The notes: a model not told the origin generated them from the sequence alone. Shown: positions 6,789-28,024, counted from the stretch's first letter. The stretch is DNA of 30,887 nt from a bacterium (GCA_030588935.1 JAUUWR010000001.1:1-30887); one strand, 5' to 3'. Made by a program: numbers and translations.

Positions 6789-7295
6789 TTAGTGATCTTT
6801 TAGTTCTGGGAGATCTGACAAAATTTTTTCTAAATTTTCTTCTAGTTGGGTATTAGAAAGGGATTCTTTTATTCCAATTGTTTTGAATATAAGGGGAGAT
6901 ATAAAGTATGTAATATTAAAATAAGGATTTATTTCAATTCTATTTTTTTTTAATTCAAAAGTTCCATATCCTGTATTCATTATTAAATTATTTTGATTTA
7001 TTAAATCATATGAGATAGAATCAGGTTCATAAAAAGAATCCTTTGGTTTATATTCTTTTAATAATCTATATAGCCCTTCAAATTCAGGTAATACATCTAA
7101 TTTATTCATATTAGTTGGCCAGGACATTCTTATAGTTGGCGATTCGTTATTTTTTTGATAATGAGAATTTACTTGTAGGAAACGAGTAGACTCTATATAA
7201 AAGCTATTCTTTCTAACTACTTCTTTTTTTTCTCCTTTACCAAATTCATTTTCTTTTGTTTTTACTATGATTTGTGTATTTGTTGCAGTTTTCAT
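6789..7295 (-). CDS. hypothetical protein (168 aa ORFan)
   Basis: Long ORF in an AT-rich stretch; no family recognised. Confidence 0.65.
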   Translation of the reverse strand: MKTATNTQIIVKTKENEFGKGEKKEVVRKNSFYIESTRFLQVNSHYQKNNESPTIRMSWPTNMNKLDVLPEFEGLYRLLKEYKPKDSFYEPDSISYDLINQNNLIMNTGYGTFELKKNRIEINPYFNITYFISPLIFKTIGIKESLSNTQLEENLEKILSDLPELKDH

Positions 7296-7340: not shown

Positions 7341-7913
7341 TTATTTCCCTCTTCTTTTTCCAGCTCTTACAGAAGGCCTATTTTTATTCATTGGAGATTT
7401 GCTTCTCAATCCTCTGCTCTTTTTTCCTGCAGATGTTAATCCTCTGAAAACTCTGTTTTTGTTTGAAGGTTTGGTTATCCATTTTGTTTTTTTATTATTT
7501 TTAATTTCTGGTCTGCTTGGGTCAATGAGAATAACTTCAAAAAAATAATATTTTCCATCTTTTCCAATATTATAAGAGTTCAAAATTTCAAGATTTTGGA
7601 ATTTTCTTTGGCATCTTTGTTCTGCGACCCATTGATAGCTCATTTTTACTATTTTTTTGTTTGTCTGTCTTTTTGTTCTTCTGCCTTTATTGGGTTTTTT
7701 TCTTTTTCTCCCTCCTCTCGAGATTCTGACTCTTGCCATAACAAAACCTTTTTTAGCTTTATAGCCAAGAGAGTGGGCCCTGTCAAGACGCAGAGGTTTT
7801 TCTACTTTAACAATTGCATTTGATTTTCTCCACTCAATCATTCTTTGCCTGAGTATTTTTTTATCTGGCTTTTTCCATGCTTGTCTTAAATGGTAATGTA
7901 GTCCTTTTGTCAT
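7341..7913 (-). CDS. rpl15e: 50S ribosomal protein L15e
   Basis: RLDRAHSLGYKAKKGFVMARVRISRGGR, QWVAEQR, LNSY, YYFFEVILIDP, RVFRGLTSAGKKSRGL. Confidence 0.97.
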   Translation of the reverse strand: MTKGLHYHLRQAWKKPDKKILRQRMIEWRKSNAIVKVEKPLRLDRAHSLGYKAKKGFVMARVRISRGGRKRKKPNKGRRTKRQTNKKIVKMSYQWVAEQRCQRKFQNLEILNSYNIGKDGKYYFFEVILIDPSRPEIKNNKKTKWITKPSNKNRVFRGLTSAGKKSRGLRSKSPMNKNRPSVRAGKRRGK

Positions 7914-7937
7914 GTTTTGATTAGAAAGAGTTTGTTT

Positions 7938-8825
7938 TTAAATGTTTCTTGGTATTTTTCCAAGCCTATTTATTAATGATTTTCTAGCAGTTCTTTCTTG
8001 TTGAGTATCAATCTCCCAATAAAAAACTTCTTCTGAGTTTATACCAATATCTATATAGCCTGTCCCTAGTATTTTTGGGATCTTCCTTGGAATATTTTTT
8101 ATTATAATAGGAAAATCAAGTTTTCTCTTAAATAAAGGAGCAGGATATAATGTTAAACAATGTTGATCTTTTCTGAATTCATAATATGGCACTATATTAA
8201 AAGGGTTTTTGTTTTCAAATTTTTTTGGTCTTTTTTGGGGTCTTCTTTCATGACTCCAACCCCCTTCTATTAGATTTTTGTAGAATTTTAATGGATTGAT
8301 GGGATCAATCATAATATGAGGGACATTTTTATCTTTTGGAATAAATACACTACTTTGATACCAGTCAGAAATTCTTCCTAATAAAAAAGAATTCCAAAAT
8401 AAAAAATCTTTTGTTTCTTCTATAACAACTCCTCTTATATGAGGTTGATGAAATTCAGAAAAAGGGAATTTAAATTCTTTACAACCTTTTAAACTATGCC
8501 ACCCATCTCCACCCCCATCTAGATGGGACATTGGTTTAACTGTAATAAAACAAGGAATATCTAAACCAAATAGATTAATATTTCTAAGAAGAATTGGGAC
8601 TTCATCCTTAGTCCATACTTGATATTCTTTTTCTCCCTCATATGTTATTTCTCCAGTTTCCCAGTTTCTTATTTGAATTTCATAAGAAATTGTTTTTAAA
8701 TTTTGATTAAAATCTTCTTCGTTATAGACTTTTCTTCCTTCAAAACCTAATTGCCACCATAAAACTTGTTTTTTATTAATAATTCTTTTTTCATTCAGTT
8801 TTTGTAAAAGTTTTTTATTAACCAT
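7938..8825 (-). CDS. hypothetical protein (295 aa, aromatic-rich ORFan)
   Basis: Long ORF immediately downstream of tRNA-Ile; no family recognised. Confidence 0.7.
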   Translation of the reverse strand: MVNKKLLQKLNEKRIINKKQVLWWQLGFEGRKVYNEEDFNQNLKTISYEIQIRNWETGEITYEGEKEYQVWTKDEVPILLRNINLFGLDIPCFITVKPMSHLDGGGDGWHSLKGCKEFKFPFSEFHQPHIRGVVIEETKDFLFWNSFLLGRISDWYQSSVFIPKDKNVPHIMIDPINPLKFYKNLIEGGWSHERRPQKRPKKFENKNPFNIVPYYEFRKDQHCLTLYPAPLFKRKLDFPIIIKNIPRKIPKILGTGYIDIGINSEEVFYWEIDTQQERTARKSLINRLGKIPRNI

Positions 8826-10682: not shown

Positions 10683-10733
10683 TTTAAAAACCCAAAATTC
10701 ATAATAAAACTGCTTTAAGGGGAAAAGAGTTCT
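10683..10733 (+). promoter_or_regulatory. ORFan-associated promoter/leader element copy A
   Basis: TTTAAAAACCCAAAATTCATAATAAAACTGCTTTAAGGGGAAAAGAGTTCT, 11 nt before ATG 10745. Confidence 0.65.
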
Positions 10734-10744
10734 GATAAGATAAG

Positions 10745-11065
10745 ATGGTTAATGAAAATACTATGAGTGATCAAGAAATTAGCAAATATTTTGATAAGCA
10801 ATATAAGTATGTGGATGATAATATAAAACAACTTATAAAGATTTATAGTGATAAATTTGTGATAGTTTATGATAGAAGAGTTGTAGATTCTGATTCTAAT
10901 GAGATTGAATTAGCAAAAAGGCATCATCTAAGGGGTCAATTTGACTTTACTCTGCCTGCTTTAATAACTAAGATTTCAAAGACACTTGAAGAACATTTAG
11001 AGGAAATAAATAGAAGAAAAGAACCTGTTTATTTAGAATCTCCAGAAGAAGAGTGTTTCCGATGA
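10745..11065 (+). CDS. small protein, DUF5678-like
   Basis: YSDKFVIVYDRRVVDSDSNEIELAKR resembles the DUF5678 pattern (recognised from memory only); overlaps the MFS 3' end by 37 nt. Confidence 0.55.
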   Translation: MVNENTMSDQEISKYFDKQYKYVDDNIKQLIKIYSDKFVIVYDRRVVDSDSNEIELAKRHHLRGQFDFTLPALITKISKTLEEHLEEINRRKEPVYLESPEEECFR

Positions 11066-12432
11066 TAATGTGTTTTTCTTATGATTAATTCATGATGGCC
11101 TTCGAAACTTGGGAGTTTGATTCTCCTTGGGATTAATTCTTTTAGTGCTTTTTTAGAATCAAACTCTTTTGTTTTTCTTATTTCTTTGATAAAAGGAGTC
11201 ATAATTAAGCCTACAAACATTCTTGCAATAGCTGAGATTAAGAAAATAAATAAAAGTTTGTTCATAAAACTGATTGTTAGTGTTTTTACTAAAATAGCTC
11301 CAACTCCTGCACCTAAAAAAATTCCGATGCCGTTTAATACATTGTGATATGAAACTGCCAGGCCTCTTTTTTCAGAGCTGACAGAGTCAAAAATAAAATT
11401 TGATGTAGCTAAATTAAATCCTGCAAATGCTATTCCACCTATTAAAGCAGGACCAAGAATCAGGAAGATTGGACGAGGGGAAATTAACCATAGAACAGGA
11501 TGAAGAGGTATGAGGATAGAAGTTATTTTTATAATCCTGTAATTTCCATATTTATCAGCAAATTTGCCCCATAATCTCATTGTTAGCAGGCTGAATATTA
11601 ATTGAGAAAGAACAACTGTCATAAAAATAACATAACTGAAATTAAGATTTCTTAGCATATAAACTGCGAAAAATGGACTTGCAATAGACATTGCAAAATA
11701 CATCAATGCTGTAAAAAATGTGAATCTTCCGAAATTATTTGATTTAGCTTTTTTTATGAATTGCCAGAAAGAAAAATAATATCCTTTTTTGAGTTTTAAT
11801 TTTGGTTCATAAGATTTTTTAAAATAATAACTACAAGTCAATCTCGCTATCATCGCGATAAAAAATAATATCATAAATCCAAACATGGTGTAATTATTTT
11901 TCTTAAAAAAATCTAATAAAAAAGCAGCTAAGATTGTGAATATTAATGTAACTATGCCAATTGTGAAATTTCTTTTTGAAAACCATTTTCCTCTGTAATC
12001 TTTATCAACCACATCCCCCATCCATGAGAACCATGCAGGATAGGAAATCCCATTAAGTATTATAAATAAAGCAAAAAAGATTAGGAGTAATAATGGCAAA
12101 AAAGATATTAAAATTCCTTTATAAAATAAAAGGGCTATGATGATTAAAGGAATCCATGTTAATGCTTCGAAAAGAGTTGCAATTGTTACTATTTTTTTTC
12201 TTGGATATTTTTCAATTAATCTTGAACTTTGCCATTGACTTATCGGCCCTATTAAACCTGCAACAGAACTAATTAAAGCGATTAAGGAATTACTTGCATT
12301 GATTGCAATTGCAAAAGGAGTAATATAAGAATTTCTTAGTACAGTTCTGATTGTTGCAAAACTGCCTTCTTTGATACTTAAGTGCCTTGTTTTTCTCTGC
12401 AAAGCTCTTCTTCTCCTTTTTTTTAAATCCAT
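11029..12432 (-). CDS. Major facilitator superfamily transporter
   Basis: About 12 hydrophobic segments; WGKFADKYGNYR motif-A-like loop; WFSWMGDVV..RGKWFSKRN. Confidence 0.9.
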   Translation of the reverse strand: MDLKKRRRRALQRKTRHLSIKEGSFATIRTVLRNSYITPFAIAINASNSLIALISSVAGLIGPISQWQSSRLIEKYPRKKIVTIATLFEALTWIPLIIIALLFYKGILISFLPLLLLIFFALFIILNGISYPAWFSWMGDVVDKDYRGKWFSKRNFTIGIVTLIFTILAAFLLDFFKKNNYTMFGFMILFFIAMIARLTCSYYFKKSYEPKLKLKKGYYFSFWQFIKKAKSNNFGRFTFFTALMYFAMSIASPFFAVYMLRNLNFSYVIFMTVVLSQLIFSLLTMRLWGKFADKYGNYRIIKITSILIPLHPVLWLISPRPIFLILGPALIGGIAFAGFNLATSNFIFDSVSSEKRGLAVSYHNVLNGIGIFLGAGVGAILVKTLTISFMNKLLFIFLISAIARMFVGLIMTPFIKEIRKTKEFDSKKALKELIPRRIKLPSFEGHHELIIRKTHYHRKHSSSGDSK

Positions 12433-12482
12433 CTTTTTATAATTATTATATTTGGATTAATAAAAGTTACTGAAGAGTATTA

Positions 12483-12553
12483 TGCGCCTTCCGAGAATCG
12501 AACTCGGGTCTAGACCTTGGGAAGGTCTTATTCTGCCACTATACCAAAGGCGC
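12483..12553 (-). tRNA. tRNA-Gly(CCC), no intron, CCA not encoded
   Basis: Reverse complement GCGCCTT TGGTATAGTGGCAGAATA AGACC-TTCCCAA-GGTCT AGAC CCGAG-TTCGATT-CTCGG AAGGCGC A; anticodon CCC. Confidence 0.96.
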
Positions 12554-12605
12554 ATATGATTTATAGTATAATAATTATTTTAAAGGTTATTGTTGTGGGG
12601 GTTTG

Positions 12606-12956
12606 ATGGTTGAGAGGCAATTGTGGTGGAATTTTGTAGGAATTCCTGCTGAGGAAAAGATAAAATGGTTTTTTGTGATTGTGAATGATAAAAGAGAGAT
12701 TAGAAAAATATCGAACAGAATTTTTGGAAGGCTCGCAATGATTGAGGAATTGGTTGAAAGAGAAGGAAAAGCAGATGGTATGAATTATAAACTTCTGGTT
12801 TTTAATTCTGAAAAAAAATTAGAAAAGGATGATATTTCATCTATTTATAGGGGTTATGTGAAAAGAGAAGAAAGATTATACACTAGAAAAAGGTTGGGAA
12901 TAGATGGATTAGAAAATTATGTACAAAGAAAGTTAAAAAGAAATAATAAGCCTTAA
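12606..12956 (+). CDS. hypothetical protein (ORFan)
   Basis: ORF track starts at TTG 12603; ATG 12606 preferred because TTTTAAAG lies at 12578-12585 (-28). Confidence 0.6.
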   Translation: MVERQLWWNFVGIPAEEKIKWFFVIVNDKREIRKISNRIFGRLAMIEELVEREGKADGMNYKLLVFNSEKKLEKDDISSIYRGYVKREERLYTRKRLGIDGLENYVQRKLKRNNKP

Positions 12957-12980
12957 ATATGTTCTTTTTCTTGAATTCTT

Positions 12981-14357
12981 ATGGCAAACAAGAAAAAATT
13001 TTATGTGACAACTGCGATTGATTATGTAAATGCTCCTCCACATTGCGGGCATGCATTTGAGAAAATAATAGCTGATGCTTTAGTGAGATGGCATAAGTTA
13101 AAAGGGGAAAATGTCTGGTTTTTAACTGGGACAGATGAAAATGCTCAAAAAAATGCTCAAGCTGCAAAAGCTGCAGGAATTCCTGTTCAGAAATTTGTAG
13201 ATAAAAATTCTAAGATATTTATTGAATTATGCAAGAAATTGAATATAAATTATGATGATTTTATTAAAACAACTGAAAAAAGACATGTAAAAGTTGCTCA
13301 AGAGATTTTCAAAAAAGTTTATGATAAAGGCGAGATTTACAAGGGGAAATATGAAGGATATTATTGTAAGGGATGTGAGTCTTTTATTACTGAAAGAGAA
13401 TTAGTTGATGGGAAATGTCCTGAGCATGATAAAAAACCTGAATTACTGTCTGAAGATGCTTATTTTTTTAAGTTAAGTAAGTATAAAGATAAAATAATCA
13501 AGTTTGTTGAGGGTTATATTGTTCCTTCTTCAAGGAAGAAAGAGATTTTGTCAAGATTGAAAGGTGATGAATTAAGGGACTTATGTGTTTCTCGTAGTAA
13601 TTTAGATTGGGGTATTGATAGTCCTATTGACAAAAAATTTAAGATTTATGTGTGGTTTGATGCTTTGATAAATTATGTATCTGGTGCAAATGGGAACTGG
13701 CCTGCTGATGTCCATGTTATTGGGAAAGGAATTAACTGGTTTCATTCTGTTATTTGGCCTGGAATTTTAATGTCTGCTGGTTATGAATTGCCTAAAAAAT
13801 TATTAGTTCATGGATATTTGAATTTAAAAGGAAAGAAAATAAGTAAGACTTTGGGTAATGTAATTGACCCAATTAAATTAGCAGATAAATATGGAGCAGA
13901 TGCTGTTAGATATTCTTTGTTAAGAGGTTCTGTATTTGATGATTTTGATTATTCTGAGGAAATTTTGGTTGAGAGGTATAATAATGAACTTGCAAATAAA
14001 CTTGGGAACTTAGTTAGTAGGGTTTGTAGTTTAGCTGAGAAATATGGTTTAGAGAAATGTGAGAATAAGTTATTGAAGAAATTGAAATTAAGAGAGATAG
14101 AAAAATTAATTGATAATTATGAGCTTGATAAAGCTTTGAATTTGATTTTTGAGTTTATTGATGTTTGTAATGAGTATGTTCAGAATAAAAAGCCTTGGGA
14201 GAGTAAGGATAAGAAGGTTTTGTATGAATTAAAAGAATCTATTTTGAAAATTGCTGAACTTTTAAGTCCTTTTATTCCTGAATCTGCTGAGAAAATTAAA
14301 AAACAATTTAGTGCTAAGAAGATTAAGAAGGGGGAGATATTGTTTAGGAAGATTTAA
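12981..14357 (+). CDS. metG: Methionyl-tRNA synthetase, short form lacking the C-terminal tRNA-binding OB domain
   Basis: FYVTTAIDYVNAPPHCGH (HIGH), GTDE, Zn knuckle CKGC..CPEH, YVWFDALINY, GKGINWFH, KISKT (KMSKS), DAVRY. Confidence 0.96.
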   Translation: MANKKKFYVTTAIDYVNAPPHCGHAFEKIIADALVRWHKLKGENVWFLTGTDENAQKNAQAAKAAGIPVQKFVDKNSKIFIELCKKLNINYDDFIKTTEKRHVKVAQEIFKKVYDKGEIYKGKYEGYYCKGCESFITERELVDGKCPEHDKKPELLSEDAYFFKLSKYKDKIIKFVEGYIVPSSRKKEILSRLKGDELRDLCVSRSNLDWGIDSPIDKKFKIYVWFDALINYVSGANGNWPADVHVIGKGINWFHSVIWPGILMSAGYELPKKLLVHGYLNLKGKKISKTLGNVIDPIKLADKYGADAVRYSLLRGSVFDDFDYSEEILVERYNNELANKLGNLVSRVCSLAEKYGLEKCENKLLKKLKLREIEKLIDNYELDKALNLIFEFIDVCNEYVQNKKPWESKDKKVLYELKESILKIAELLSPFIPESAEKIKKQFSAKKIKKGEILFRKI

Positions 14358-14405
14358 AAACCTTAAAATTATATAAAATTAAACCTAAAAGGGAAGAAGA
14401 GTTCT
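14353..14405 (+). promoter_or_regulatory. ORFan-associated promoter/leader element copy B
   Basis: TTTAAAAACCTTAAAATTATATAAAATTAAACCTAAAAGGGAAGAAGAGTTCT, 14 nt before ATG 14420. Confidence 0.7.
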
Positions 14406-15118
14406 TGATAATATTGAAAATGGATTATAAAAAAATTGCAAAGTATGCAGGAAAAACTGCTGCGACAATAGTTTGTCCGCCTTTGGGGTTTGCTTTGTGG
14501 CCGAAGAAAGCAGAAAAGAGATTAGGAGCCGCAGCTGTAGGACTTGTAGTTTCTGGAATGTTTAATGTTGGAATATTATCATGGCAAAAAAAACAAGTTT
14601 ATGATAATATAAGTGTGATTGGAAAAACGCCTGTTTCTGTTGTTAATTGGGGGGAAATTTTTAGTTCTCCTATAGCATTTTATTTTGATGCTCCTAATAA
14701 AACAAGATTAAAAAAAGTTAAAAAATCTTATTTTGTACAAGGGGATGATGTAGTAACTTTTAATAATGGAAAATATAATTTAAATTTCAGTTCTGAGAGG
14801 AAGTTTGGGTCTTTTGCAGGAAAATCTGTTGCACAAGCTCAAGAACAAGTAAAGATGCATGAAAAACAATTTCAAGAAAAGATAACAAAATATGAAAAAA
14901 TACTTGAAGCTTATTTAAAACAAGGAAGTTTGCTTGATGCAAGGAGAGAAAGAGAAAATTTAGATAAATTAAAACTTCTTAAACAAGAGAAATTAGGAAA
15001 ATTAGAAGCTAATTTAGAAGCAGTTACTAAAGAATATATTGAAACAAAAACAGTCTTTCAAGAAGCTGTTGATAAGATGAATTCTGAGTTAGAGTGTCTT
15101 GCGCAAGGGAAAAATTAA
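14405..15118 (+). CDS. hypothetical membrane-anchored coiled-coil protein (probable start ATG 14420)
   Basis: Two N-terminal hydrophobic stretches and a K/E-rich heptad C-terminus; preceded by the GGGAAGAAGAGTTCT element. Confidence 0.7.
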   Translation: MIILKMDYKKIAKYAGKTAATIVCPPLGFALWPKKAEKRLGAAAVGLVVSGMFNVGILSWQKKQVYDNISVIGKTPVSVVNWGEIFSSPIAFYFDAPNKTRLKKVKKSYFVQGDDVVTFNNGKYNLNFSSERKFGSFAGKSVAQAQEQVKMHEKQFQEKITKYEKILEAYLKQGSLLDARRERENLDKLKLLKQEKLGKLEANLEAVTKEYIETKTVFQEAVDKMNSELECLAQGKN

Positions 15119-15168
15119 AAAAGAGTAAATTGTTTTTAATAAGATAAATGTGCAATAATATTAATATT

Positions 15169-15308
15169 GAAAAATTTGGAAGCTTTGCTAACCAAATTTT
15201 TCTTTTAAAATCTATAACGCTAAAAATTATTAAGTTTTGAAGATGAGATGATTAAGCGATAAATAGAAACACTTAAATTATCGGATTAATATTATAGATA
15301 AAAATAAA
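15169..15308 (+). promoter_or_regulatory. Long upstream element copy 5 (tRNA-binding gene), hairpin subtype
   Basis: 11-bp inverted repeat GAAAAATTTGG 15169-15179 / CCAAATTTTTC 15192-15202; GAAGATGAG 15239-15247; ATTAAGCGATAAA; TTATAGATAAA near the ATG. Confidence 0.65.
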
Positions 15309-15647
15309 ATGACAAAAGGAATAGTATCTTTTAAAGACTGGCAAAAATTTGATTTGCGAGTTGGAGAGATTCTTGAAGTTGAAGATATTGAAGGAGCTGA
15401 TAAGCTTTTTAAGTTGAAAATTGATTTAGGGACAGAGACAAGGGTTTTGGTTGCTGGGTTAAAAGGATATTATACAAAACCTGAATTAGAAGGAAAAAGA
15501 GTTATTGTTTTTTGTAATTTAGAGCCTCGAATGATAAGGGGGATTGAGAGCAAGGGAATGGTTTTGGCTGCTGTAAATGGTGATAAAAGTGAAGTGAAGT
15601 TGTTGCAGGCAGATGGGGTTGTTGAGTTGGGTGGGAAGGTTAGTTAG
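15309..15647 (+). CDS. Stand-alone tRNA-binding OB-fold protein (Trbp111/MetRS C-terminal/CsaA-like)
   Basis: FKDWQKFDLRVGEILEVEDIEGADKLFKLKIDLG..R.LVAGLK..Y...EL.GK.VIVFCNLEPR..RGIESKGMVLAA. Confidence 0.93.
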   Translation: MTKGIVSFKDWQKFDLRVGEILEVEDIEGADKLFKLKIDLGTETRVLVAGLKGYYTKPELEGKRVIVFCNLEPRMIRGIESKGMVLAAVNGDKSEVKLLQADGVVELGGKVS

Positions 15648-15649
15648 GT

Positions 15650-16045
15650 TTAATCATCAAGTATACCGCAAGGAAGCTTAACAATTTCACAAATCTTATT
15701 ATAATTAAAATAAGAGTCTAAATAGGACATTATCTGTTGAGGCGAGCGATAAAGATAACTACCAGAGGCTTTAATGCATAAAGAAGAGGTTTTAACCCCT
15801 CTATCTTTTTTTAATCTTAAGCTTAGTCTTGCAGGGATAGAACGATATGATTCGTTCTTAGCATTAACAGAAAATTCAAATCCTCTTTTTTTATATTTAA
15901 TTACTCGAAAACTTCTTTCTGATTCAGGAGCTTCATCTAATGTTTTGATTAATTTATCAGCAAATTCTTTTACTGATCTGTTAGTATTCATCCATCCTTG
16001 AAAATATATTGTCTTAAACTCAAAATCTGGTTTTCTTTTAAACAT
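15650..16045 (-). CDS. hypothetical protein (131 aa ORFan)
   Basis: ORF convergent with the tRNA-binding gene (2 nt gap). Confidence 0.6.
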   Translation of the reverse strand: MFKRKPDFEFKTIYFQGWMNTNRSVKEFADKLIKTLDEAPESERSFRVIKYKKRGFEFSVNAKNESYRSIPARLSLRLKKDRGVKTSSLCIKASGSYLYRSPQQIMSYLDSYFNYNKICEIVKLPCGILDD

Positions 16046-16098
16046 TATAAAAATAAATAATAAATCATTTATAAGGATTTATGTAATAATTAATAGAA

Positions 16099-16866
16099 TT
16101 ATCCCTTCCCAAACAACCTCTTCCAAAATCCAAGCCTGATTGGAGGTTCTATCTCAACATCTTCTCCGAGAAGTCTTCTTGATGTGGTAAGATAAGTTTT
16201 TGCTGCTCTGGATTTTGGATGAGTGTGGATTACTGCGTTTTTCATAGCTTGTGATTTTTTTATTGCAACATCTTCTGGGATAATACCTAAAATAGGGCTT
16301 TCTAACATGTCTTTTATATTTGGAAGAGACATTTCTGTTTCTTTTCCCTGGTATCTTGTTATTATGATTCCCTTTATAGGCTTGTTCATTTCTTGTGTGA
16401 GCTTAATTGTTTTTAGAGCGTCTGTTATGGCAGCTATTTCTGGGTTAGTTATAATTATGATTTCATCAGAAACTTGTATTATGGATTTAACTTCTTTGCC
16501 TAATCCTGCTGCAGAGTCAATTAAAATATGGTCTGTTATTCTTTTTAGTTTTTTTGCAATGTCTGGGAGGGCTTTATAATTTATTTTTCCAATTTCTTTT
16601 AATGAGAGAGAGGCAGGGATGATTTTTGTTCCAGATTCATGCTCATAAATAGCTTCTTCTAATTTTGCCTGCCCATTTAAAACATGATTAAGGGTGATAG
16701 GGACTATAGGAGCTCCTAAGTGAATGCCTATGTTTGGGGTGGATAGGTTTCCATCTATGATGATAACATTTTCTCCTAAGTGGTTTAAAGAGGTTCCTAA
16801 ATTAATTGCACTTGTGGTTTTTCCAGTTCCTCCTTTTCCTGAGATTATTGCGTAGATTTTTGACAT
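16099..16866 (-). CDS. minD: MinD/ParA-family ATPase (archaeal MinD-like)
   Basis: Deviant Walker A SGKGGTGKTT, IIDGNL, ILIDSAAGLG, C-terminal amphipathic FWKRLFG. Confidence 0.92.
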   Translation of the reverse strand: MSKIYAIISGKGGTGKTTSAINLGTSLNHLGENVIIIDGNLSTPNIGIHLGAPIVPITLNHVLNGQAKLEEAIYEHESGTKIIPASLSLKEIGKINYKALPDIAKKLKRITDHILIDSAAGLGKEVKSIIQVSDEIIIITNPEIAAITDALKTIKLTQEMNKPIKGIIITRYQGKETEMSLPNIKDMLESPILGIIPEDVAIKKSQAMKNAVIHTHPKSRAAKTYLTTSRRLLGEDVEIEPPIRLGFWKRLFGKG

Positions 16867-17090
16867 TTTCTTATTTTATGTTGTTTTTTTACCTTCTATT
16901 TTATGGAAAAATTAAGAGCCTTCGGACAACTTAATTTTCCTTTTTTATCTATAAGGTTATAAATTTTTAAGTTATGTGAGTGAGTTCTTTTGTTTTCTCC
17001 TTGTCTGCTTAAGCTTCTCTTCTGAGTAAATTAATATTTTATAAGATATTGGTTTTTTATAATATAAGCGAGCGAACAAAGTGAGTGAGC
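16867..17090 (-). promoter_or_regulatory. Long upstream element copy 6 (minD) with tandem-GA hairpin and proximal stem-loop
   Basis: GCTTAAGC 17007-17014; GAGCGAACAAAGTGAGTGAGC 17070-17090; stem GGAAAAATTAAG 16905 / CTTAATTTTCC 16930-16940. Confidence 0.7.
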
Positions 17091-17117
17091 CAATTATATT
17101 TTAACTTTTTTTGACAA

Positions 17118-17573
17118 TTACTTGGATGTCAAAAAAAGCTTGGTATAATTTATAAACCTTTCGAGAATTTCAGCATATTCTTTTAATTTGTCTAAATCAA
17201 CTCTGATTTCTTCTCCTTTGTATATGATTGTTAAGCAAACTCCTTTTCTAAATTCGTTGGCCTTGGTTTTTTTGAGGATATCAATTAATTTAAACATCTC
17301 GTATAATTTGATGGCTTCTATGACTTCTTCTTGTTTTTTGAAAATTTTTTTTATAGCGTCTACTTTTATTTTTGGGGCTGTTGGGATTTTTTTAATCTTT
17401 TTTTTCTTTTTTGCTTTTCCTAATAGCCCATCAATAGAATAATCAATCATTATTTTCCATCTTTTGAGAAGATTAATCATTACATCGCAGGTTTTTGTGT
17501 ATTTCAAACTAACATAAAGCAAATGGTCTGCACTTATTTTTTCTTTAATTATTTCTTCTAAATTTTCTGACAT
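17118..17573 (-). CDS. conserved-looking helical hypothetical protein (possible HEPN-like), paralog A
   Basis: ADHLLYVSLKY motif shared with ORF 18261-18728; carries the long upstream element. Confidence 0.75.
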   Translation of the reverse strand: MSENLEEIIKEKISADHLLYVSLKYTKTCDVMINLLKRWKIMIDYSIDGLLGKAKKKKKIKKIPTAPKIKVDAIKKIFKKQEEVIEAIKLYEMFKLIDILKKTKANEFRKGVCLTIIYKGEEIRVDLDKLKEYAEILERFINYTKLFLTSK

Positions 17574-17767
17574 GTTTTATTATATTATTTTTTGGAATCT
17601 TACAATTTACTTGATATTATTAACTGGAATCTTAATGAATAATACCTTACTCAGATGAGTAGCTTAAGTTCTCTTTTACTCTCTTACGCTTCTCATATCA
17701 AGCGTTATATTTTATTTATTATGAGTTTTTTATATAAAAGAGGCGAGCGAACAAAGTGAGCGAGCCT
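17574..17767 (-). promoter_or_regulatory. Long upstream element copy 7 (ORF 17118-17573) with tandem-GA hairpin
   Basis: TGGAATCTT 17593 and 17625; block 17606-17637 is 31/32 identical to 3060-3091; GATGAG 17654; CTCAT 17692; hairpin 17741-17767. Confidence 0.8.
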
Positions 17768-17888
17768 GATATATTCCATTTGTTTGTTTTTAGTGTTATA
17801 TACCTCATTTTCTGTTAAAATGGCGAAAAAGAGTTTAAAATAAAGGTAGAACTTCTATATAAATGTTGGTTTTGTTTGTAGAAAGGTT

Positions 17889-17938
17889 TTTAAAAGACAA
17901 ATTTATTATAAATCTACCTAAAAGGGAAGGAGAGTTCT
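17889..17938 (+). promoter_or_regulatory. ORFan-associated promoter/leader element copy C
   Basis: TTTAAAAGACAAATTTATTATAAATCTACCTAAAAGGGAAGGAGAGTTCT, 12 nt before ATG 17951. Confidence 0.7.
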
Positions 17939-17950
17939 AATAAGAGAAAC

Positions 17951-18259
17951 ATGGTATATAAAAAAACATTAAAAGATTTTATATTATATTGTAAATACAG
18001 TTTAAAAGGACAAGTTTTTATAGATATTGGAGCTCCAATAACAATTAAAGGAAATCAGGGTTTAGAACACAAATCTTCTCCAAATAAAGGAGTTCCTTAT
18101 CGTGTGTTAGACATACTTGATAAGGCAAAATGGAATCCAAATCAACTTAGGACAACGCTAATAATAGAGTATGAAAATCAGACAACTGGGGAAACAAAGA
18201 TAGAACAGACATATTTGGATGAGAGACTTAATGATGAGTCTAGGTCGCAGGATTGGTAG
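17951..18259 (+). CDS. hypothetical protein (102 aa ORFan)
   Basis: Preceded by the GGGAAGGAGAGTTCT element; stop lies 1 nt from the convergent gene. Confidence 0.65.
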   Translation: MVYKKTLKDFILYCKYSLKGQVFIDIGAPITIKGNQGLEHKSSPNKGVPYRVLDILDKAKWNPNQLRTTLIIEYENQTTGETKIEQTYLDERLNDESRSQDW

Positions 18260-18260
18260 T

Positions 18261-18728
18261 TTAATTTGTTTTCACCCTCTTATTAACCTCCATCAGCAAT
18301 TCTTTAGCTAATAAGAGATATTCTTTGATTTTATGAATGTCAAGAGTTTGTGTGTGCAGGTTATCTGAAAGAATGACCACTTTGTTTTGCTTGACAAACT
18401 CCATTGCACTTTGTTTGTGTTTTTTATTTAATTCAAGGATTTCGAGGATTTTTTTGATTTGTTCGTTGGTTAAATTATAGGTTTTAGCGCATTTATCTGT
18501 GAAAGTCCTGATGTTTTCTCTGTTATTTGCGTAAAGTTGGATTCTCTTGTATAAATACTCATAATTTAAAATGGCATTTATGCAGTTTATTATTGATTTA
18601 TGGATTTCATCGAAGATTTTTAAAATAAGCCTTTGTTCGTTTACAAGAGGTAATGTAACATATGTCATGTGGTCTGCTATTTGCAGGCTTCTTACAGCTT
18701 GTTTTAAATTTTCCTGGAATTTTTCCAT
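18261..18728 (-). CDS. conserved-looking helical hypothetical protein (possible HEPN-like), paralog B
   Basis: QIADHMTYVTLPL motif shared with ORF 17118-17573; carries the long upstream element. Confidence 0.75.
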   Translation of the reverse strand: MEKFQENLKQAVRSLQIADHMTYVTLPLVNEQRLILKIFDEIHKSIINCINAILNYEYLYKRIQLYANNRENIRTFTDKCAKTYNLTNEQIKKILEILELNKKHKQSAMEFVKQNKVVILSDNLHTQTLDIHKIKEYLLLAKELLMEVNKRVKTN

Positions 18729-18890
18729 AACAAATAGAAGGAAGATTTGTTAATAAAATTATATGTATTGGAATTATTTTATTCTTTATTCTGGAATCCT
18801 TAGAAAATTTTAAGTGTTTAATATTGGTTTATTTAGCGTACTTGAGCATTTCATCTCTCGAACTTATGTTCTTGTAAGATTATTAGTTAA
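18729..18890 (-). promoter_or_regulatory. Long upstream element copy 8 (ORF 18261-18728)
   Basis: TGGAAT 18769 and 18792; TTCATCTCTCGAAC 18850-18863; CTTGTAAGATTATTAG upstream, as in copies 1 and 4. Confidence 0.7.
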
Positions 18891-18895
18891 TGATA

Positions 18896-19063
18896 TTAAC
18901 CACTAATGGGAAAGAAGATTTTTAAGATTACAACAAAAGCTATAATTGCGATTATAAATAAGATTATATGGGAGGGTTTTATTTTGAATCTGCTGTTGTA
19001 TTCTTCACTATAACGCATTAATCCGCCTCCTGAAGAGGGCATGTGTATTCCTTGTTGTGCCAT
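18896..19063 (-). CDS. secG: Preprotein translocase subunit Sec61beta (archaeal SecG)
   Basis: Missing from the ORF track; hand translation MAQQGIHMPSSGGGLMRYSEEYNSRFKIKPSHIILFIIAIIAFVVILKIFFPISG* shows the P-S-x-GGLxRY..E...KI.P pattern plus one C-terminal TM helix. Confidence 0.92.
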   Translation of the reverse strand: MAQQGIHMPSSGGGLMRYSEEYNSRFKIKPSHIILFIIAIIAFVVILKIFFPISG

Positions 19064-19180
19064 TTTATTTGTCTTATTTAATTTATTTGGAATTTAATTA
19101 ATATTTTAAGCTATGTTGATGAGTAGCTTGAGTTTCTGTTGTGTGTATCTCTATTCTTTTTAAGATAATGATATTCTTTT
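19064..19180 (-). promoter_or_regulatory. Long upstream element copy 9 (sec61beta), partial
   Basis: Sense AAGCTACTCATCAACATAGCTTAAAATATT..AAATTCCA, closely similar to copy 1 (CTCATCAACCAAGCTTAATATT..AAATTCCA). Confidence 0.6.
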
Positions 19181-19234
19181 ATTTTGTTAATTTCTACAAT
19201 AAGATATTATTTAAAAAGGTTGTTGTTGTAATAT

Positions 19235-19459
19235 TTAAGCGGCTTGTTTAGAAATTTTAACAAATGTATCTATAGAGCTATGGTATTTTCTACATCTCCT
19301 AGCTATTTGTTTTTGGCTTAATCCTTCTATTGAATCTCCTATATCATTATGTTTTTCCTTAATATTATAATAATCTATTTTATCGAATTCAGTTAGTGTT
19401 TCGTTTGAGTATTTTTCCCAAATTTCTTTAAGTTCTTGTTTATGAAATTCTGCTAACAT
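19235..19459 (-). CDS. hypothetical protein (74 aa ORFan)
   Basis: Short ORF divergent from valS; no family recognised. Confidence 0.5.
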   Translation of the reverse strand: MLAEFHKQELKEIWEKYSNETLTEFDKIDYYNIKEKHNDIGDSIEGLSQKQIARRCRKYHSSIDTFVKISKQAA

Positions 19460-19540
19460 ATTTTATTAATTTATATTTATTTTTTAAGCATTTAGATATA
19501 CAATCACAAGATTTAAAATATAAGTTTATTTAAAAAGGTT

Positions 19541-21970
19541 ATGGATATATATGATGCACAAAAAGTAGAGCAAAAAATTCGTAGATTTTGGGAAAAGGAG
19601 AAAATCTTTAAGTTTGATTTTAAAAGAAAAGGCAGGGTTTTTAGTATAGATACTCCGCCACCATATGTTTCTGGAGCAATGCATATCGGGCATGCTTTTT
19701 CATATGCTCAGCAAGATTTTATAGTAAGATTTAGAAGAATGAGTGGAAATGTCTTTTATCCATTTGGGACAGATGATAATGGACTGCCTACTGAAAGATT
19801 TGTTGAAAAGATAAATAAAATAAAAAGCAAGAGTATGTCAAGAGCAAAATTCATAGAATTATGTCTGAAAACCATTAAAAAAATGACTCCTGGATTTGTG
19901 CAGGATTACAAGGATTTGGGTATTTCTGCTGATTATGATATTTATTATTCTACTATTGATAAAAATGCGCAAAAAGTTTCCCAGAAATCTTTTGTTGATT
20001 TATTTAAAAAAAGAGAAATATATAAAAAAGAATTTCCGACTTTGTGGTGTCCAGAATGCCAGACATCTATTGCCCAGGCAGAATTGGAAGATAAAGAAAA
20101 AGAGACTACATTGAATTATATTAAAGGAAAGATGGAAGATGGTTCGTTTATTATTTATGCAACGACTCGTCCTGAATTGCATCCAGGATGTATTGGTATT
20201 TCTTTGGATCAAAAAGGAGATTATGTTAAAGTGAAAAGAGATGGTGGTGAAACTTGGATTCTGAGCAAGGATGCAGTTAAAGAAATGAAAAAAGAATTTC
20301 CTATGGATATTATTGAAAAGTTTAAGGGAAAAGATTTGCTCGGGAAAAAGGTTGAGATTAAATTTTCTGAGCAACCTGTTTATATTTCTCATGATATTTC
20401 TGCAAAGACAGGTTATGGAACCGGGGTTGTGTACTATTGCAGTTATGGGGGGTTAGATTGTGTTTTGTGGCTGACTCGCCATTCTGAAGCAAAGATAATT
20501 TCTGTTATGAGTGAGTCTGGAATTTATACAAAAGGTCCATGTAAAGGGATGAGATCAGATGCAGCAAGAGAGAAAATTTTAGAGTTGCTGGACAAGGAAG
20601 GATATTTAATTAAGAAAGAGAAAATGAAACATTCTGCTAATGTTCATGATAAGTGCGGGACTCCAGTTGAATATATTCAAACAGAGCAGTGGTTTATTAA
20701 GATTTTAGATAAAAAGAAAAAATTAATTGAGCAAGGGAAGAAAATTAAGTGGTATCCTGAGTTTATGTTTAAGAGGTATGAGAACTGGGTTAATGGATTA
20801 GAATGGAATTGGAGTATTTCAAGAGACAGGCATTTTGGAGTTCCTATTCCTGTTTGGGAGTGCAGGTGTGGGAAGATAATCTTGCCTGAGGAAAATGAAT
20901 TACCTGTAGACCCTTTGCAAGTTAAGAAAAAATGCTCTAAATGCGGAGAAATTGCAAAAGGAGAAGAAAGAGTTTTAGATACTTGGGCAACTTCTTCTTT
21001 AACACCTCAAATTGCTAGTTCTTTAATTAATAATAAAGTTAAGATTCCATATTCTCTTCGTCCGCAAGCTCATGATATAATAAGAACTTGGGCGTTTTAC
21101 ACAATAGTCAAATCTTTGCTTCATGAAAATAAAATTCCTTGGGAAAATATTATGGTTTCTGGTTTTGTTACATTAGGAGGAAAGAAAATGTCAAAAAGCA
21201 AGGGGACTGGTGTTCAGCCTCATGAAGTTTTTGAAAAATATGGTGCAGATGCATTAAGGTTTTGGGCATCTGGAAGCAAATTGGGAGAAGATTTAAATTA
21301 TCAAGAAAAAGATTTAATTGCAGGAAAAAGATTTGCAACTAAATTATGGAATGCTTCTCGGTTTGTTTTTATGAATTTGAAAGATTATGATGGAAAGAAG
21401 CCGAAGAAGTTAGAGAAAATTGATGAGTTGTTTTTGGGAAAGTTAAATTTTTTGATTAGGGATTGCACTAAATATTTTGAGAAATATGAATATTCAAAAG
21501 CAAGAGCAGAGACAGATAAATTTTTTTGGCATGATTTTTGTGATAATTATCTTGAGATTGTTAAGAAGAGGGTTTATAAGGGAAAAGGGGGCAAGAGAGC
21601 TTCTGCACAATATGGCTTATATCAGTCGTTGTTGACTATATTGAAGTTGATTGCTCCGATAATGCCTTTTATTACAGAAGAGATTTATCAGAATTATTTT
21701 AGGAAGTTTGAGAGGAAGAAGAGTGTTCATATTTCAAAATGGCCTGAAGCTGGGAAAATTGGAGATTCAAAAGAATTTGATTTGTTTATTAGAATTTTAA
21801 GTAAAGTTAGGCAAGCAAAAACAAAGGTTAAAAAGTCAATGAATGCTGAGATTGATTTGAGTATTGATAAAAAAGATTATGCCCGGTTGGATGGGATGAT
21901 TGAAGATTTGAAAGATGTTGTGAATGCGAAAGAAATGAAAACTGGGAAGTTTGGGGTGGAATTTATATAA
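19541..21970 (+). CDS. valS: Valyl-tRNA synthetase
   Basis: FSIDTPPPYVSGAMHIGH, FGTDDNGLP, TTRPE, WSISRDRHFGVPIP, LDTWATSS, KMSKS, ADALRFW, FCDNYLE. Confidence 0.96.
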   Translation: MDIYDAQKVEQKIRRFWEKEKIFKFDFKRKGRVFSIDTPPPYVSGAMHIGHAFSYAQQDFIVRFRRMSGNVFYPFGTDDNGLPTERFVEKINKIKSKSMSRAKFIELCLKTIKKMTPGFVQDYKDLGISADYDIYYSTIDKNAQKVSQKSFVDLFKKREIYKKEFPTLWCPECQTSIAQAELEDKEKETTLNYIKGKMEDGSFIIYATTRPELHPGCIGISLDQKGDYVKVKRDGGETWILSKDAVKEMKKEFPMDIIEKFKGKDLLGKKVEIKFSEQPVYISHDISAKTGYGTGVVYYCSYGGLDCVLWLTRHSEAKIISVMSESGIYTKGPCKGMRSDAAREKILELLDKEGYLIKKEKMKHSANVHDKCGTPVEYIQTEQWFIKILDKKKKLIEQGKKIKWYPEFMFKRYENWVNGLEWNWSISRDRHFGVPIPVWECRCGKIILPEENELPVDPLQVKKKCSKCGEIAKGEERVLDTWATSSLTPQIASSLINNKVKIPYSLRPQAHDIIRTWAFYTIVKSLLHENKIPWENIMVSGFVTLGGKKMSKSKGTGVQPHEVFEKYGADALRFWASGSKLGEDLNYQEKDLIAGKRFATKLWNASRFVFMNLKDYDGKKPKKLEKIDELFLGKLNFLIRDCTKYFEKYEYSKARAETDKFFWHDFCDNYLEIVKKRVYKGKGGKRASAQYGLYQSLLTILKLIAPIMPFITEEIYQNYFRKFERKKSVHISKWPEAGKIGDSKEFDLFIRILSKVRQAKTKVKKSMNAEIDLSIDKKDYARLDGMIEDLKDVVNAKEMKTGKFGVEFI

Positions 21971-21978
21971 TGGATAGA

Positions 21979-22030
21979 TTTAAAAATAACAAAATCATAA
22001 TAAAATTGCCTAAATGGGAAAGAGAGTTCT
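21979..22030 (+). promoter_or_regulatory. ORFan-associated promoter/leader element copy D
   Basis: TTTAAAAATAACAAAATCATAATAAAATTGCCTAAATGGGAAAGAGAGTTCT, 8 nt before ATG 22039. Confidence 0.7.
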
Positions 22031-22032
22031 GA

Positions 22033-22380
22033 GTGAAAATGCAAAAAGGATTATTAAGAAAAATTGGATATGGAATATTAATAGCTTTGGCCTCAGGTGT
22101 ATTAAGTGGAAAATTAAGTTACGAAGAAGGTTATAAAAGAGGGGTAGGAAAAGAAAGAAAGGAATATGAAGAAAGAATAATGCACGCAAAGATAAAAGAT
22201 ATAAATTTAGATGGAAAAGGAGATTTAATTCTCCCACATTATGAAGATGATGTGTGGATTCCCAGGTTATTTATCAATGAAGGAGAATTTTTTTGCCCAG
22301 TGGAAACATATGTAAAAGTAAATTCAAGGAAGGAATTATATAAGTTGTATGAAGTTGGATATGAAGAAATTAAAAAATAA
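22033..22380 (+). CDS. hypothetical membrane-anchored protein with DINLDGKGD Ca-binding-like loop (probable start ATG 22039)
   Basis: N-terminal TM segment; DxNxDGxxD motif; preceded by the GGGAAAGAGAGTTCT element. Confidence 0.65.
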   Translation: MKMQKGLLRKIGYGILIALASGVLSGKLSYEEGYKRGVGKERKEYEERIMHAKIKDINLDGKGDLILPHYEDDVWIPRLFINEGEFFCPVETYVKVNSRKELYKLYEVGYEEIKK

Positions 22381-22388: not shown

Positions 22389-22865
22389 ATGTTTGAAAAT
22401 TTTACAGATAGAAGCAAAAAAGTAATGGCTCTTGCTAATCAAGAAGCTCTTAATTTTAATCATGAATATATTGGGACAGAACATGTTTCATCACAATCAA
22501 AAGTTCAGGAAATTGAAAAACCTTGGAAAATCCCTAGAAAAGATATGGACCTTATAACATTTTTACAAATTCAGAAATATAAAGTAGTTGAAGGGCCGAC
22601 AGATTATTTTGATATATCAAAAGTAGAAGATTCTTCTGATATAAAGATTGGGAAACTTAATTTTGATAGGGATGGATATATAAGGGTTATTTATGATTTA
22701 AACAATGTGAAACAAATAGGGCATGCTCTTGATTTAAGAGACATTTTTGACAACAATGGGGTTAAATACCAAGAAGAGCCTCCTTCTTCAGAAATTCTAG
22801 AAGCATTAAAAAAACCTGTAAAAGATGTAGCTTCTCTTATAGATAGATTAGAAAAAAGAGTTTAG
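22389..22865 (+). CDS. hypothetical protein with an N-terminal Clp_N (ClpC/ClpB N-domain) fragment
   Basis: First 32 aa MFENFTDRSKKVMALANQEALNFNHEYIGTEH match the ClpC N-terminus; the remainder is unrelated. Confidence 0.75.
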   Translation: MFENFTDRSKKVMALANQEALNFNHEYIGTEHVSSQSKVQEIEKPWKIPRKDMDLITFLQIQKYKVVEGPTDYFDISKVEDSSDIKIGKLNFDRDGYIRVIYDLNNVKQIGHALDLRDIFDNNGVKYQEEPPSSEILEALKKPVKDVASLIDRLEKRV

Positions 22866-24164: not shown

Positions 24165-24350
24165 ATGAAAGAAGATTATAGTGAGGTAGTTAGGAAATAT
24201 AAGGGTCGTCCTCTTACTTTTGAAGAGGAGAGAGAATTATGTGTTAATTCTATAAAAAGGATAGGGCCTTTTTTGAGAGAATTTGAAAGAGCTCATATAG
24301 AAAGTTTATCTGAAGCTATTAGAAAGGGAGTAACTTGTTATGCTGCTTAG
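24165..24350 (+). CDS. hypothetical protein (61 aa)
   Basis: Short ORF with TTTATAAA at 24136-24143 (-29). Confidence 0.55.
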   Translation: MKEDYSEVVRKYKGRPLTFEEERELCVNSIKRIGPFLREFERAHIESLSEAIRKGVTCYAA

Positions 24351-27001: not shown

Positions 27002-28024
27002 ATGGAAAAATGTGGGATGTGTGGGGTTGATGGCGAAAAAGTAAGACTTTTTGATGCTATTTGTGATGGCAGAATGGAATGTATTTGCGAAAGATGTTCT
27101 ATAATAGAAAATGTTCCAATTATAAAAAAACCAGAAGCATCTCAGTTAAAAGAAGCTGAGAAAGGGTTTGGTGTTTATAAAAGAATGAGGAAGTTATCTG
27201 GGATGAAGGATGTTAAAGAAGAAAAGACTTTTTTTATTGAAGATAAGCTGAAGGAGTTGGACAAAAAGCCAGAACTTGAGCTTCCTGAAAAAGATAAATT
27301 GAATTTGATTGAATATTATCATTGGGAAATTATGAAGAACAGAAGGAGGAAAGGATTTTCTCAGAAACAGTTGGCAGAAGTTTTGGGAGAATCTGAGGCA
27401 GCTATCCAAATGATTGAGAAGGCAAAGCTTCCTGAAAATACTGAGGTTTTAGTGAGGAAATTAGAGCAGTTTTTTCAGATTAAGTTGAGAAGGATTAGTG
27501 AGATGGAAAGAATTATGGAAAAGAAAAGACAAGAACAAAAACCTGTTCTTTTGGATGAGCAGGGAGAGAAATTAGATGTTATTCCTGAACCAGAGATTGA
27601 AGCTCTTGAATTAGAGTCAATTCCTGGATTAGAGATTGAGGAATTTGGAATAATTAGTGAAGAAGGAGGGAAAATTGATGAGATTCAGGAAGAGTCAGAA
27701 GTTGAAGAAGAAAAAGACTTGGAGGGGATGGATATGGAAAAAGGAGAGTTTGATATAAATAAAGCAGATGTTAGTGCTGTTAGGATTGGAGATTTGAAAG
27801 AATTGCATAGAAGAAAAATAGAAGCAACCAAGCAAGAAAGAATTGAGGAACAGAAAAAAATTGAAGAAAGACAGAGACTTGTTGAAGCGAGAAAAGAAGA
27901 GTTTAGATTGAAGAGAGAAAAAGAGTCAAGAAAGTTGGATGAAGTTTTTGGAGGGGCTGAGTTATTGGAAGAGTCAGAAGAGGATTTTGAAAAAAGAGGG
28001 GAGTTTGATGAGGAGTTGGTTTGA
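27002..28024 (+). CDS. MBF1-like protein (Zn ribbon + XRE HTH) with long acidic/coiled C-terminal extension
   Basis: CGMCG...CERC at the N-terminus; IMKNRRRKGFSQKQLAEVLGESEAAIQMIE.A.LP HTH; about 170 aa Glu-rich tail. Confidence 0.8.
   Translation: MEKCGMCGVDGEKVRLFDAICDGRMECICERCSIIENVPIIKKPEASQLKEAEKGFGVYKRMRKLSGMKDVKEEKTFFIEDKLKELDKKPELELPEKDKLNLIEYYHWEIMKNRRRKGFSQKQLAEVLGESEAAIQMIEKAKLPENTEVLVRKLEQFFQIKLRRISEMERIMEKKRQEQKPVLLDEQGEKLDVIPEPEIEALELESIPGLEIEEFGIISEEGGKIDEIQEESEVEEEKDLEGMDMEKGEFDINKADVSAVRIGDLKELHRRKIEATKQERIEEQKKIEERQRLVEARKEEFRLKREKESRKLDEVFGGAELLEESEEDFEKRGEFDEELV

Follow-up and report, generated by a model that had tools for sequence, protein, structure and literature searches.

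A near-invariant leader core upstream of unrelated orphan genes as a candidate RNA-level start signal in a Pacearchaeota genome

Archaeal repressors such as TrmB, MDR1, and Phr classically bind DNA just past the transcription start, at about +5 to +25, and the operators of TrmB and TrmBL1 (the TGM motif) overlap the start, are palindromic, and are tied to a promoter. The STAB-SD of Bacillus thuringiensis cry3A is a stabilizer at the 5′ end of an mRNA. The messages of Haloferax volcanii are mostly leaderless, and the mechanism by which the minority with 5′ untranslated regions is translated without Shine-Dalgarno (SD) pairing is not known (Kramer et al. 2014, PMC3986360). Highly similar upstream sequences in front of non-homologous genes, within and between genomes, were described as promoter reuse or putative mobile promoters (Nijveen, Matus-Garcia and van Passel 2012, PMC3575422). 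Here we report on an upstream module that occurs four times in a DNA stretch of 30,887 nucleotides (nt) (GCA_030588935.1 JAUUWR010000001.1:1-30887), referred to as the window, and consists of a promoter and a leader with a conserved core. We propose, with a probability of roughly 0.45, that this core is a start signal at the level of the RNA, used by messages other than leaderless ones, and that it would act in translation.

The window is contig C60 of a 0.96-Mb metagenome-assembled genome (MAG; G000 below) with 121 contigs, 30% GC, and an estimated completeness of 82.55%. The closest public genomes bear the labels Candidatus Pacearchaeota, Woesearchaeota or Nanoarchaeota, and judged by these relatives the source organism is a DPANN archaeon of the Pacearchaeota. 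The window DNA was found in a marine-sediment metagenome DNA run and in no RNA run, and it is collinear with the corresponding regions of four congeners.

All four modules lie on the plus strand, with the G-run (GGG) at positions 10719, 14391, 17924, and 22016. In each of them the TATA box (TTTAAAAA or TTTTTAAAA) begins 36 to 38 nt before the G-run, a CCT (CTT in copy A) is located 4 to 6 nt ahead of it, the core has the form GGGRRRGAGAGTTCT(G/A/T)A(T/G), and the distance from the core GGGRRRGAGAGTTCTGAT to the ATG is 8 to 11 nt. Copy A has the B recognition element (BRE)/TATA box TTTAAAAA at 10683-10690 (TATA matrix score 12.3; start 36 nt before GGG) and its predicted start region plus leader core at 10709-10736 (core GGGGAAAAGAGTTCTGAT, 10719-10736; 28.2 bits with the weight matrix described below). 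It precedes gene A (10745-11065, plus strand, ATG at 10745), which codes for 106 amino acids with a weak DUF5678-like match. The TATA box of copy B (14353-14360; score 14.0; start 38 nt before GGG) contains the stop codon (14355-14357) of the methionyl-tRNA synthetase gene metRS (metG). It is followed by the CCT start region and leader core at 14381-14409 (core GGGAAGAAGAGTTCTTGAT, 14391-14409; 33.1 bits) and by gene B (14420-15118, plus strand, 232 amino acids), which is situated between metRS and a Trbp-like gene; the ATG lies at 14420, and a TTG at 14405 inside the motif is not needed as a start. Copy C comprises the TATA box TTTTTAAAA at 17887-17895 (start 37 nt before GGG) and the CCT start region and leader core at 17914-17941 (core GGGAAGGAGAGTTCTAAT, 17924-17941; 35.0 bits), and leads gene C (17951-18259, plus strand, 102 amino acids), inserted between two minus-strand genes that are adjacent in congeners. 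The TATA box TTTAAAAA of copy D (21979-21986; score 12.1; start 37 nt before GGG) comes directly after the stop codon of the valyl-tRNA synthetase gene, and its CCT start region and leader core at 22006-22033 (core GGGAAAGAGAGTTCTGAG, 22016-22033; 34.0 bits) precede gene D (22039-22380, plus strand), which codes for 113 amino acids with a hydrophobic N-terminal region.

An earlier note on this stretch had placed four such elements here, one of them overlapping the metG stop, with transcription starting near CCTAAAAGGG. The four positions, the distances between TATA box, core, and ATG, and the overlap were all borne out by the sequence, and the predicted start fits the TATA-to-start distance of the genome's leaderless and tRNA genes. 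The weaker look-alikes listed in the same note did not hold up: the one at 4431-4458 scored 10.5 bits and has no TTCTGAT, and those at 3254 and 8826 (minus strand) scored below 4 bits, compared to 28 to 35 bits for the four copies. When up to three mismatches were allowed in a 16-mer, five matches were found in the window versus 1.0 expected, and none of 100 shuffles attained five. The fifth match, at 15490, lies inside an open reading frame (ORF) without the remaining module and was discarded as chance.

For the whole genome, a 28-nt weight matrix with the consensus AACCCAAAAAGGGAAGGAGAGTTCTGAT and a site threshold of at least 16 bits was used. It detected 46 sites compared to 1 in the shuffled genome, and at 20 bits or more the numbers were 32 and 0. 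In 37 of the 46 cases, the site is found a short way ahead of an ORF that begins with ATG and has 30 codons or more, without exception in the sense orientation. Copies accumulate on contigs C26, C20, and C89 and in the window. By information content, the best-kept columns are the GG of the G-run and GAGAGTTCTGA, with only A/G variation in the columns between. At least three promoter subfamilies, made up of near-identical modules of about 65 nt, can be told apart by the 40 nt ahead of a core that all of them share. In subfamily 1, a perfect inverted repeat, TTATCC-N3-GGATAA, directly adjoins the TATA box and is a candidate operator separate from the leader core; this repeat is present on C20 (L002, ~14160-14216) and on C22 (L005, ~7470-7545), where two leader cores follow one another at a distance of 75 nt. 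G000 contains 23 exact matches to the 13-mer RGAGAGTTCTGAT, compared to 0 to 4 per species in 48 further species of the genus. At least one exact copy was present in 21 of these 48 species, a reversed-pattern control gave about four matches in total, and in other genera of the family the matches barely exceeded the control. The congener copies, all in sense orientation, show the same architecture, and the genes behind them are small and again unrelated. Taken together, this distribution and the shared architecture indicate that the element is a signal at the level of the genus, which appears to have been multiplied to about 40 genes in G000.

How genes start in this genome was surveyed with about 1,000 crude gene calls. 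A strict TATA pattern shows a sharp maximum at −29/−28 from the ATG (145 genes), and most starts are not preceded by a purine enrichment, which argues that most messages are leaderless; on this pattern, the organism is a mostly leaderless one. About one gene in ten has canonical GGAG/GAGG, with a peak at −15 to −9, reflecting the use of SD sites. Next to the leaderless majority and the approximately 10% SD genes, the motif thus forms a third class of gene start. In both tRNA genes of the window, the TATA box ends 22 to 23 nt before the mature 5′ end. For 24 of the 46 motif copies, including all four in the window, the TATA box starts 34 to 39 nt before GGG. By the genome's own TATA-to-start rule, transcription is predicted to begin 5 to 10 nt before the G-run at a conserved CCY|R, giving a predicted leader of about 35 to 45 nt that opens with a purine run.

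The core can be separated from the promoter. The archaeal BRE/TATA feature that accompanies the 24 copies is absent from 10 intercistronic ones: these 10 of 46 have no TATA-like box, a call that is soft in a genome of 30% GC, and an upstream ORF on the same strand ends between −28 and +24 of GGG, the motif's own TGA sometimes apparently serving as its stop codon. Three clear intercistronic copies and one tRNA-linked copy were found in other species. As the 10 copies lack a TATA box, the core itself is not part of the promoter, and the same holds when the tRNA-Leu-linked copies of one conserved gene in four species (see below) are added: the conserved core is not a promoter element. The promoter and leader are therefore separable and do not form the single unit that had been assumed for them at first. 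The distance from the end of GAT to the ATG has a median of 10 nt and lies between 5 and 13 nt in 33 of 37 copies, a spacing as tight as that of a ribosome-binding site. On C89, the junctions of a five-gene same-strand array (L003, 14120-15888) alternate between the motif and SD-like GGGGTGAT or GAGGAGTGA; motif and SD-like sites occupy the same place, all ahead of the same TGAAGATG.

Four gene families provide natural experiments in which the type of start changes between homologues. A gene for a protein of 250 amino acids (MKIKADLHNH; no Pfam family) is located directly after tRNA-Leu(CAA) in G000 and three congeners. On C42 (L090), the tRNA gene at 2426-2508 is followed by 32 nt and then by the gene at 2541-3293, and the two are, to judge from this arrangement, evidently co-transcribed. 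The spacers of all four species carry (A)AAGAGTTCTGAT 7 to 11 nt before the ATG, and all 12 homologues that are not linked to the tRNA lack the motif. In 7 of these 12, the best TATA-like box is positioned at −28 to −30, with only three of the seven above the 95th percentile of random sequence (6.5). The tRNA-linked copy of species G018 also has a TATA-like box at −29 and is ambiguous. A nucleoside deoxyribosyltransferase-like gene is motif-led in G000 and leaderless in three congeners. Among the homologues of gene A, one is motif-led, two are leaderless, and one overlaps the upstream gene. Gene B has 12 metagenomic homologues. Two of these, from other metagenomic Pacearchaeota (L195 and L201; 46 to 48% protein identity), lie behind metRS and have kept the entire promoter-leader including the unusual TTCTTGAT variant; the others include a leaderless homologue, two with stop-start coupling, and one whose version of the motif is degenerate and SD-like. 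Compared to the protein identity of 46 to 48%, the gene B leader is roughly 80 to 85% conserved over about 70 nt, as estimated by eye and not computed, which suggests that the leader can be better conserved than the protein behind it. Three of the four families are clean with respect to start type, the fourth being that with the ambiguous G018 copy, and across the four the motif was found only with starts that are predicted not to be leaderless.

The genes behind the motif are mostly orphans. As the earlier note had it, the four window proteins are unrelated to each other, and among about 60 motif-led proteins of G000 and its congeners mutual relationship was limited to one paralogue pair in G000 and one TrmB-like pair in G054. 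Genes C and D are true ORFans with no homologue among 5.8 billion proteins. Pfam gave no match for genes B, C, and D, and at an E value of 1e-5 or below it matched 2 of 36 motif-led proteins, compared to 57 distinct families among 110 length-matched neighbouring genes. The proposed genome scan with a position weight matrix thus found the 46 sites in front of strongly ORFan-enriched genes, and the proposed comparison with relatives found all four window genes missing from the collinear regions of four congeners, gene A for example between endoV and a gene of the major facilitator superfamily. About a dozen other small ORFs of the window that have no motif are likewise missing from these regions (580-1020, 3388-3648, 4549-4845, 6789-7295, 7938-8825, 12603-12956, 15650-16045, 19235-19459, 22389-22865, 24165-24350, and 27939-28259), so orphans between core genes are a general feature here and not confined to the motif class. 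The idea of a shared expression signal for acquired genes stands insofar as the element precedes unrelated, mostly lineage-specific genes. It fails as a restriction to newly acquired ones, since gene B with its promoter-leader is syntenic behind metRS in two other Pacearchaeota and gene A has a motif-led homologue elsewhere.

A delivery of the genes by a cassette or retro-type insertion mechanism, the other suggestion of that note, found no support. In the 90 nt past the stop codons, no 8-mer is shared except for the promoter of the next copy, and no conserved 3′ boundary or attC-like site was seen. G000 has four Phage_integrase and four RVT_1 genes, all on other contigs. The RVT_1 genes (C47:1720-2355, C108:2765-3394, C63:2549-3187, and C106:2190-2825; open frames of 347 to 471 amino acids) do not lie near a motif cluster and may be parts of diversity-generating retroelements, a type of element often encountered in DPANN archaea. 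With neither a 3′ recombination site nor a linked recombinase, an integron-like or other gene cassette was rejected. A viral origin, or a virus-borne promoter class, was also rejected: three exact matches in IMG/VR, which look like chance, are all on contigs of 44 to 63% GC, none with the module architecture, and a PHROGs search with 36 proteins gave no match at an E value of 0.001 and three weak ones at 0.002 to 0.01. An island on C26 (L001, G000:C26:7000-26375; features at 717-3713, 7439-8164, 11772-12521, and 16914-17810) looks conjugative or mobile. It contains a PrgI-TraC/VirB4-TraG P-loop ATPase of 998 amino acids, two TrmB-like regulators, a DDE (IS240-type) transposase, and a radical SAM gene; a third TrmB-like gene of C26 is located at 4394-5137, and the island adjoins an array of at least nine motif-led small ORFan genes. 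C89 also carries a DDE transposase. The TrmB-like regulators (about 240 amino acids) have at least nine paralogues in G000, on C26, C114, C50, C97, C55, C113, and C20, and on C55 one is divergent from two motif-led genes with overlapping promoters.

The surroundings of genes B and C yielded further observations. The structure model of the gene B protein (predicted local distance difference test score of 81) shows N-terminal helices, a small beta domain, and a long coiled-coil hairpin, and had no PDB match at an E value of 0.001 or below. The metRS gene (12981-14357) lacks the C-terminal tRNA-binding domain (Trbp111/EMAP-like, PF01588), which is encoded by a separate gene for 112 amino acids at 15309-15647. 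This Trbp-like gene adjoins metRS in about 57 of 80 loci of relatives, in most of them immediately downstream and within a few bases of the metRS stop; in G000, gene B with its module and a 190-nt spacer separate the two. Near the insertion point of gene C (17850-17870), a block ACTTCTATATAAA is kept in the spacers of five species (G000, G005, G020, G004, and G043). A target-site duplication at this insertion was dismissed, as the similarity is merely A/T-rich (TTTGTTT-like) and no evidence.

We favour an RNA-level start signal because of the strand specificity of the core, its fixed spacing to the AUG, the promoter-less intercistronic and tRNA-linked copies, the replacement by SD-like sequences, and a gain and loss that match the type of start. 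The module would then be a modular gene-start cassette of a genus of the Pacearchaeota, composed of an ordinary BRE/TATA box, the start site at CCY|R at a distance of about 28 nt from it, a short unstructured leader with the invariant core (a purine run and then GAGAGUUCUGAU), and an AUG 5 to 13 nt past the core. The promoter half would be generic and the conserved core would act on the RNA, allowing a message to be translated with a transcribed leader, inside an operon, or after a tRNA. One possibility is that the small ribosomal subunit, or else a protein of initiation or regulation, docks to the core without SD pairing. Another is cleavage directed by the core sequence, after which a leader of 5 to 13 nt would remain, functionally a leaderless 5′ end; for haloarchaea, very short leaders are reported to be functionally leaderless (abstract of PMC4574771). 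As such a cassette would be self-sufficient, orphan or patchily distributed genes wedged between core genes could be expressed through it, and many of the about 40 cassette genes reside in islands resembling mobile elements. We regard the element as a new class of leader in Pacearchaeota, defined by its sequence, for which the comparative evidence of function is good. A more far-reaching and distinctly tentative proposal is that GAGAGUUCUGAU represents a new SD-independent translation licensing signal in DPANN archaea, to which the ribosome or an initiation factor would dock or which an endonuclease would recognize in order to trim leadered, polycistronic, and tRNA-linked transcripts to near-leaderless mRNAs, and that together with a TATA box it might be a portable start cassette for new or orphan genes in reduced genomes.

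Several candidates for a molecular partner or mode of action were tried and rejected. The MAG itself was searched and has no 16S gene; the 16S 3′ end of the genus, taken from six congeners, is GGAUCACCUCCU with the standard GGATCACCTCCT. The core and this tail form a duplex of only −6 kcal/mol compared to −21.7 kcal/mol for a perfect SD, and an extended anti-SD was discarded, as the core does not pair with the tail and the best internal 16S sites are weak and lie outside known mRNA-contacting regions. A canonical SD site is excluded by complementarity and placement: GGAG or AGGAG is present in some copies only, 18 to 24 nt from the AUG, and the real SD of the genome starts at −14 to −9. A structured cis-regulatory RNA was not supported, as there was neither a consensus fold nor an Rfam match, and a hairpin or pseudoknot was not found; at the gathering threshold, Rfam detected only two tRNAs in the window. 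A 3-bp UUC/GAA pairing rests solely on an enrichment of GAA before the ATG (16/37 versus a background of 13.7%) and was considered too weak.

The RNA-level start signal thus has to be weighed against a number of adverse points. The tests brought up no partner, as the 16S 3′ end lacks a complement to the invariant core and no convincing conserved 16S site was seen, and no conserved RNA fold, as RNAalifold gave no consensus structure for 37 copies and the mean leader z-score was −0.6. The organism already uses the canonical SD for other internal genes, and a second signal would call for an explanation. The softness of the missing-TATA calls bears on the intercistronic copies, and in the G018 copy the box at −29 would put the core between TATA and start, where it would not be transcribed. 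Finally, the core sits exactly at +5 to +25, where archaeal repressors bind, and TrmB-like genes are present in several motif-rich islands.

The last point leads to the main rival explanation, which we consider less likely and according to which the core is a DNA operator of a transcription factor, perhaps TrmB-like, that binds just past the start and co-regulates a regulon of accessory genes, the leader merely housing the operator outside the coding sequence. The core does span about +5 to +25 of the predicted transcript, and 24 of 46 copies keep a fixed distance to the TATA box; the distance to the AUG, however, is constrained just as much. Ten G000 copies and at least three congener copies lie between cistrons and lack a promoter, the core persists immediately behind tRNA-Leu, a place that cannot hold a promoter, and at equivalent intercistronic sites SD-like sequences take its place, all of which is difficult to reconcile with an operator, even if the G018 copy could fall between TATA and start. 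TrmB-like genes are indeed found in suggestive places: at least nine paralogues in G000, three of them on the motif-rich C26 and one on C55 divergent from two motif genes, three in an island of G054 with 4 motif copies of at least 16 bits and two weaker ones, and one located two genes before a gene B homologue. In the congeners, however, a TrmB gene lies within 15 kb at 4 of 20 loci, which is about chance for nine or more paralogues per megabase. Dyad symmetry, which the core lacks, is seen in the TTATCC-N3-GGATAA palindrome at the TATA box of subfamily 1.

Two further explanations appear improbable. The purine-rich 5′ end (GGGAAGGAG...) might be an mRNA stabilizer of the STAB-SD type, which holds a small subunit or a protein and shields leadered messages from 5′-to-3′ decay without serving translation start. 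The best-scoring copies have AAGGAG at the predicted 5′ end, 18 to 24 nt from the AUG and too far away for a start-site SD, and the canonical 16S 3′ end could pair with AGGAG. The GGAG, however, is not the conserved part: many copies have GGGAAAGAG, GGGAAGAAG or CGGAAAGAG, AAGGAG is absent and only AAAGAGUUCUGAU remains in the tRNA-linked copies of G005 and G018, the invariant GAGAGUUCUGAU has no complement in the 16S 3′ end, and intercistronic copies are not located at a 5′ end at all. There is equally little to recommend the assumption that the similarity is mainly historical, reflecting a promoter-leader repeat spread by duplication, recombination or a mobile element with no function beyond that of a working promoter. 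It would account for the 23 exact 13-mers in G000 compared to 0 to 4 in each of 48 congeners, for the subfamilies of nearly identical modules of about 65 nt, and for the clustering of copies on contigs with the VirB4/TraG-PrgI ATPase and DDE transposases, and in prokaryotes the reuse of promoters by non-homologous genes has documented precedents (PMC3575422). It does not account for a core that is kept before unrelated genes among species whose core proteins are only 50 to 78% identical, that is kept in orthologous leaders while the protein falls to 46% identity, and that is the same in three promoter subfamilies differing upstream; nor were a 3′ boundary motif, terminal repeats, a linked integrase or reverse transcriptase, or a real IMG/VR match found.

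Leadered archaeal translation without SD is an open question that previously had no defined sequence signal, and the short near-invariant element described here would mark such starts. It swaps in and out of orthologues as leaderless, coupled, and leadered starts change, and offers a concrete sequence to mutate. It also suggests a route by which orphans between the housekeeping genes of ultra-small DPANN genomes may gain expression, and could serve as a practical marker for the annotation of gene starts in Pacearchaeota MAGs. If the core were an operator after all, the element would define a large accessory-gene regulon in an uncultivated lineage.

A search of the literature on start signals in DPANN archaea found nothing. 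Among known systems, the closest published parallel is H. volcanii, which shares the leaderless majority and the leadered minority independent of SD. Its leaders, however, have no known motif in common, whereas the predicted leaders described here have a near-invariant core of 12 to 18 nt located 5 to 13 nt from the AUG, with SD sites used by other genes. The STAB-SD resembles the element in its purine-rich SD-like box at the 5′ end of the leader, too far from the start to be its ribosome-binding site, and differs from it in that the conserved GAGAGUUCUGAU does not pair with the 16S 3′ end, occurs between cistrons, and is found in an archaeal host. Mobile promoters likewise offer ready-made expression to newly placed genes, but in the present case the most conserved segment lies downstream of the start site and also occurs without the promoter half. 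With the TrmB/TrmBL1 operators, the element shares a position just downstream of the TATA box in a set of genes and TrmB-family genes near some islands; in contrast to them, its core is asymmetric and strand-specific and is found at promoter-less intercistronic and tRNA-linked sites. The arrays of small, unrelated, and often orphan genes, finally, are reminiscent of integron cassettes, but here a conserved 3′ recombination site and an adjacent integrase are absent, and each gene has a 5′ module of its own.

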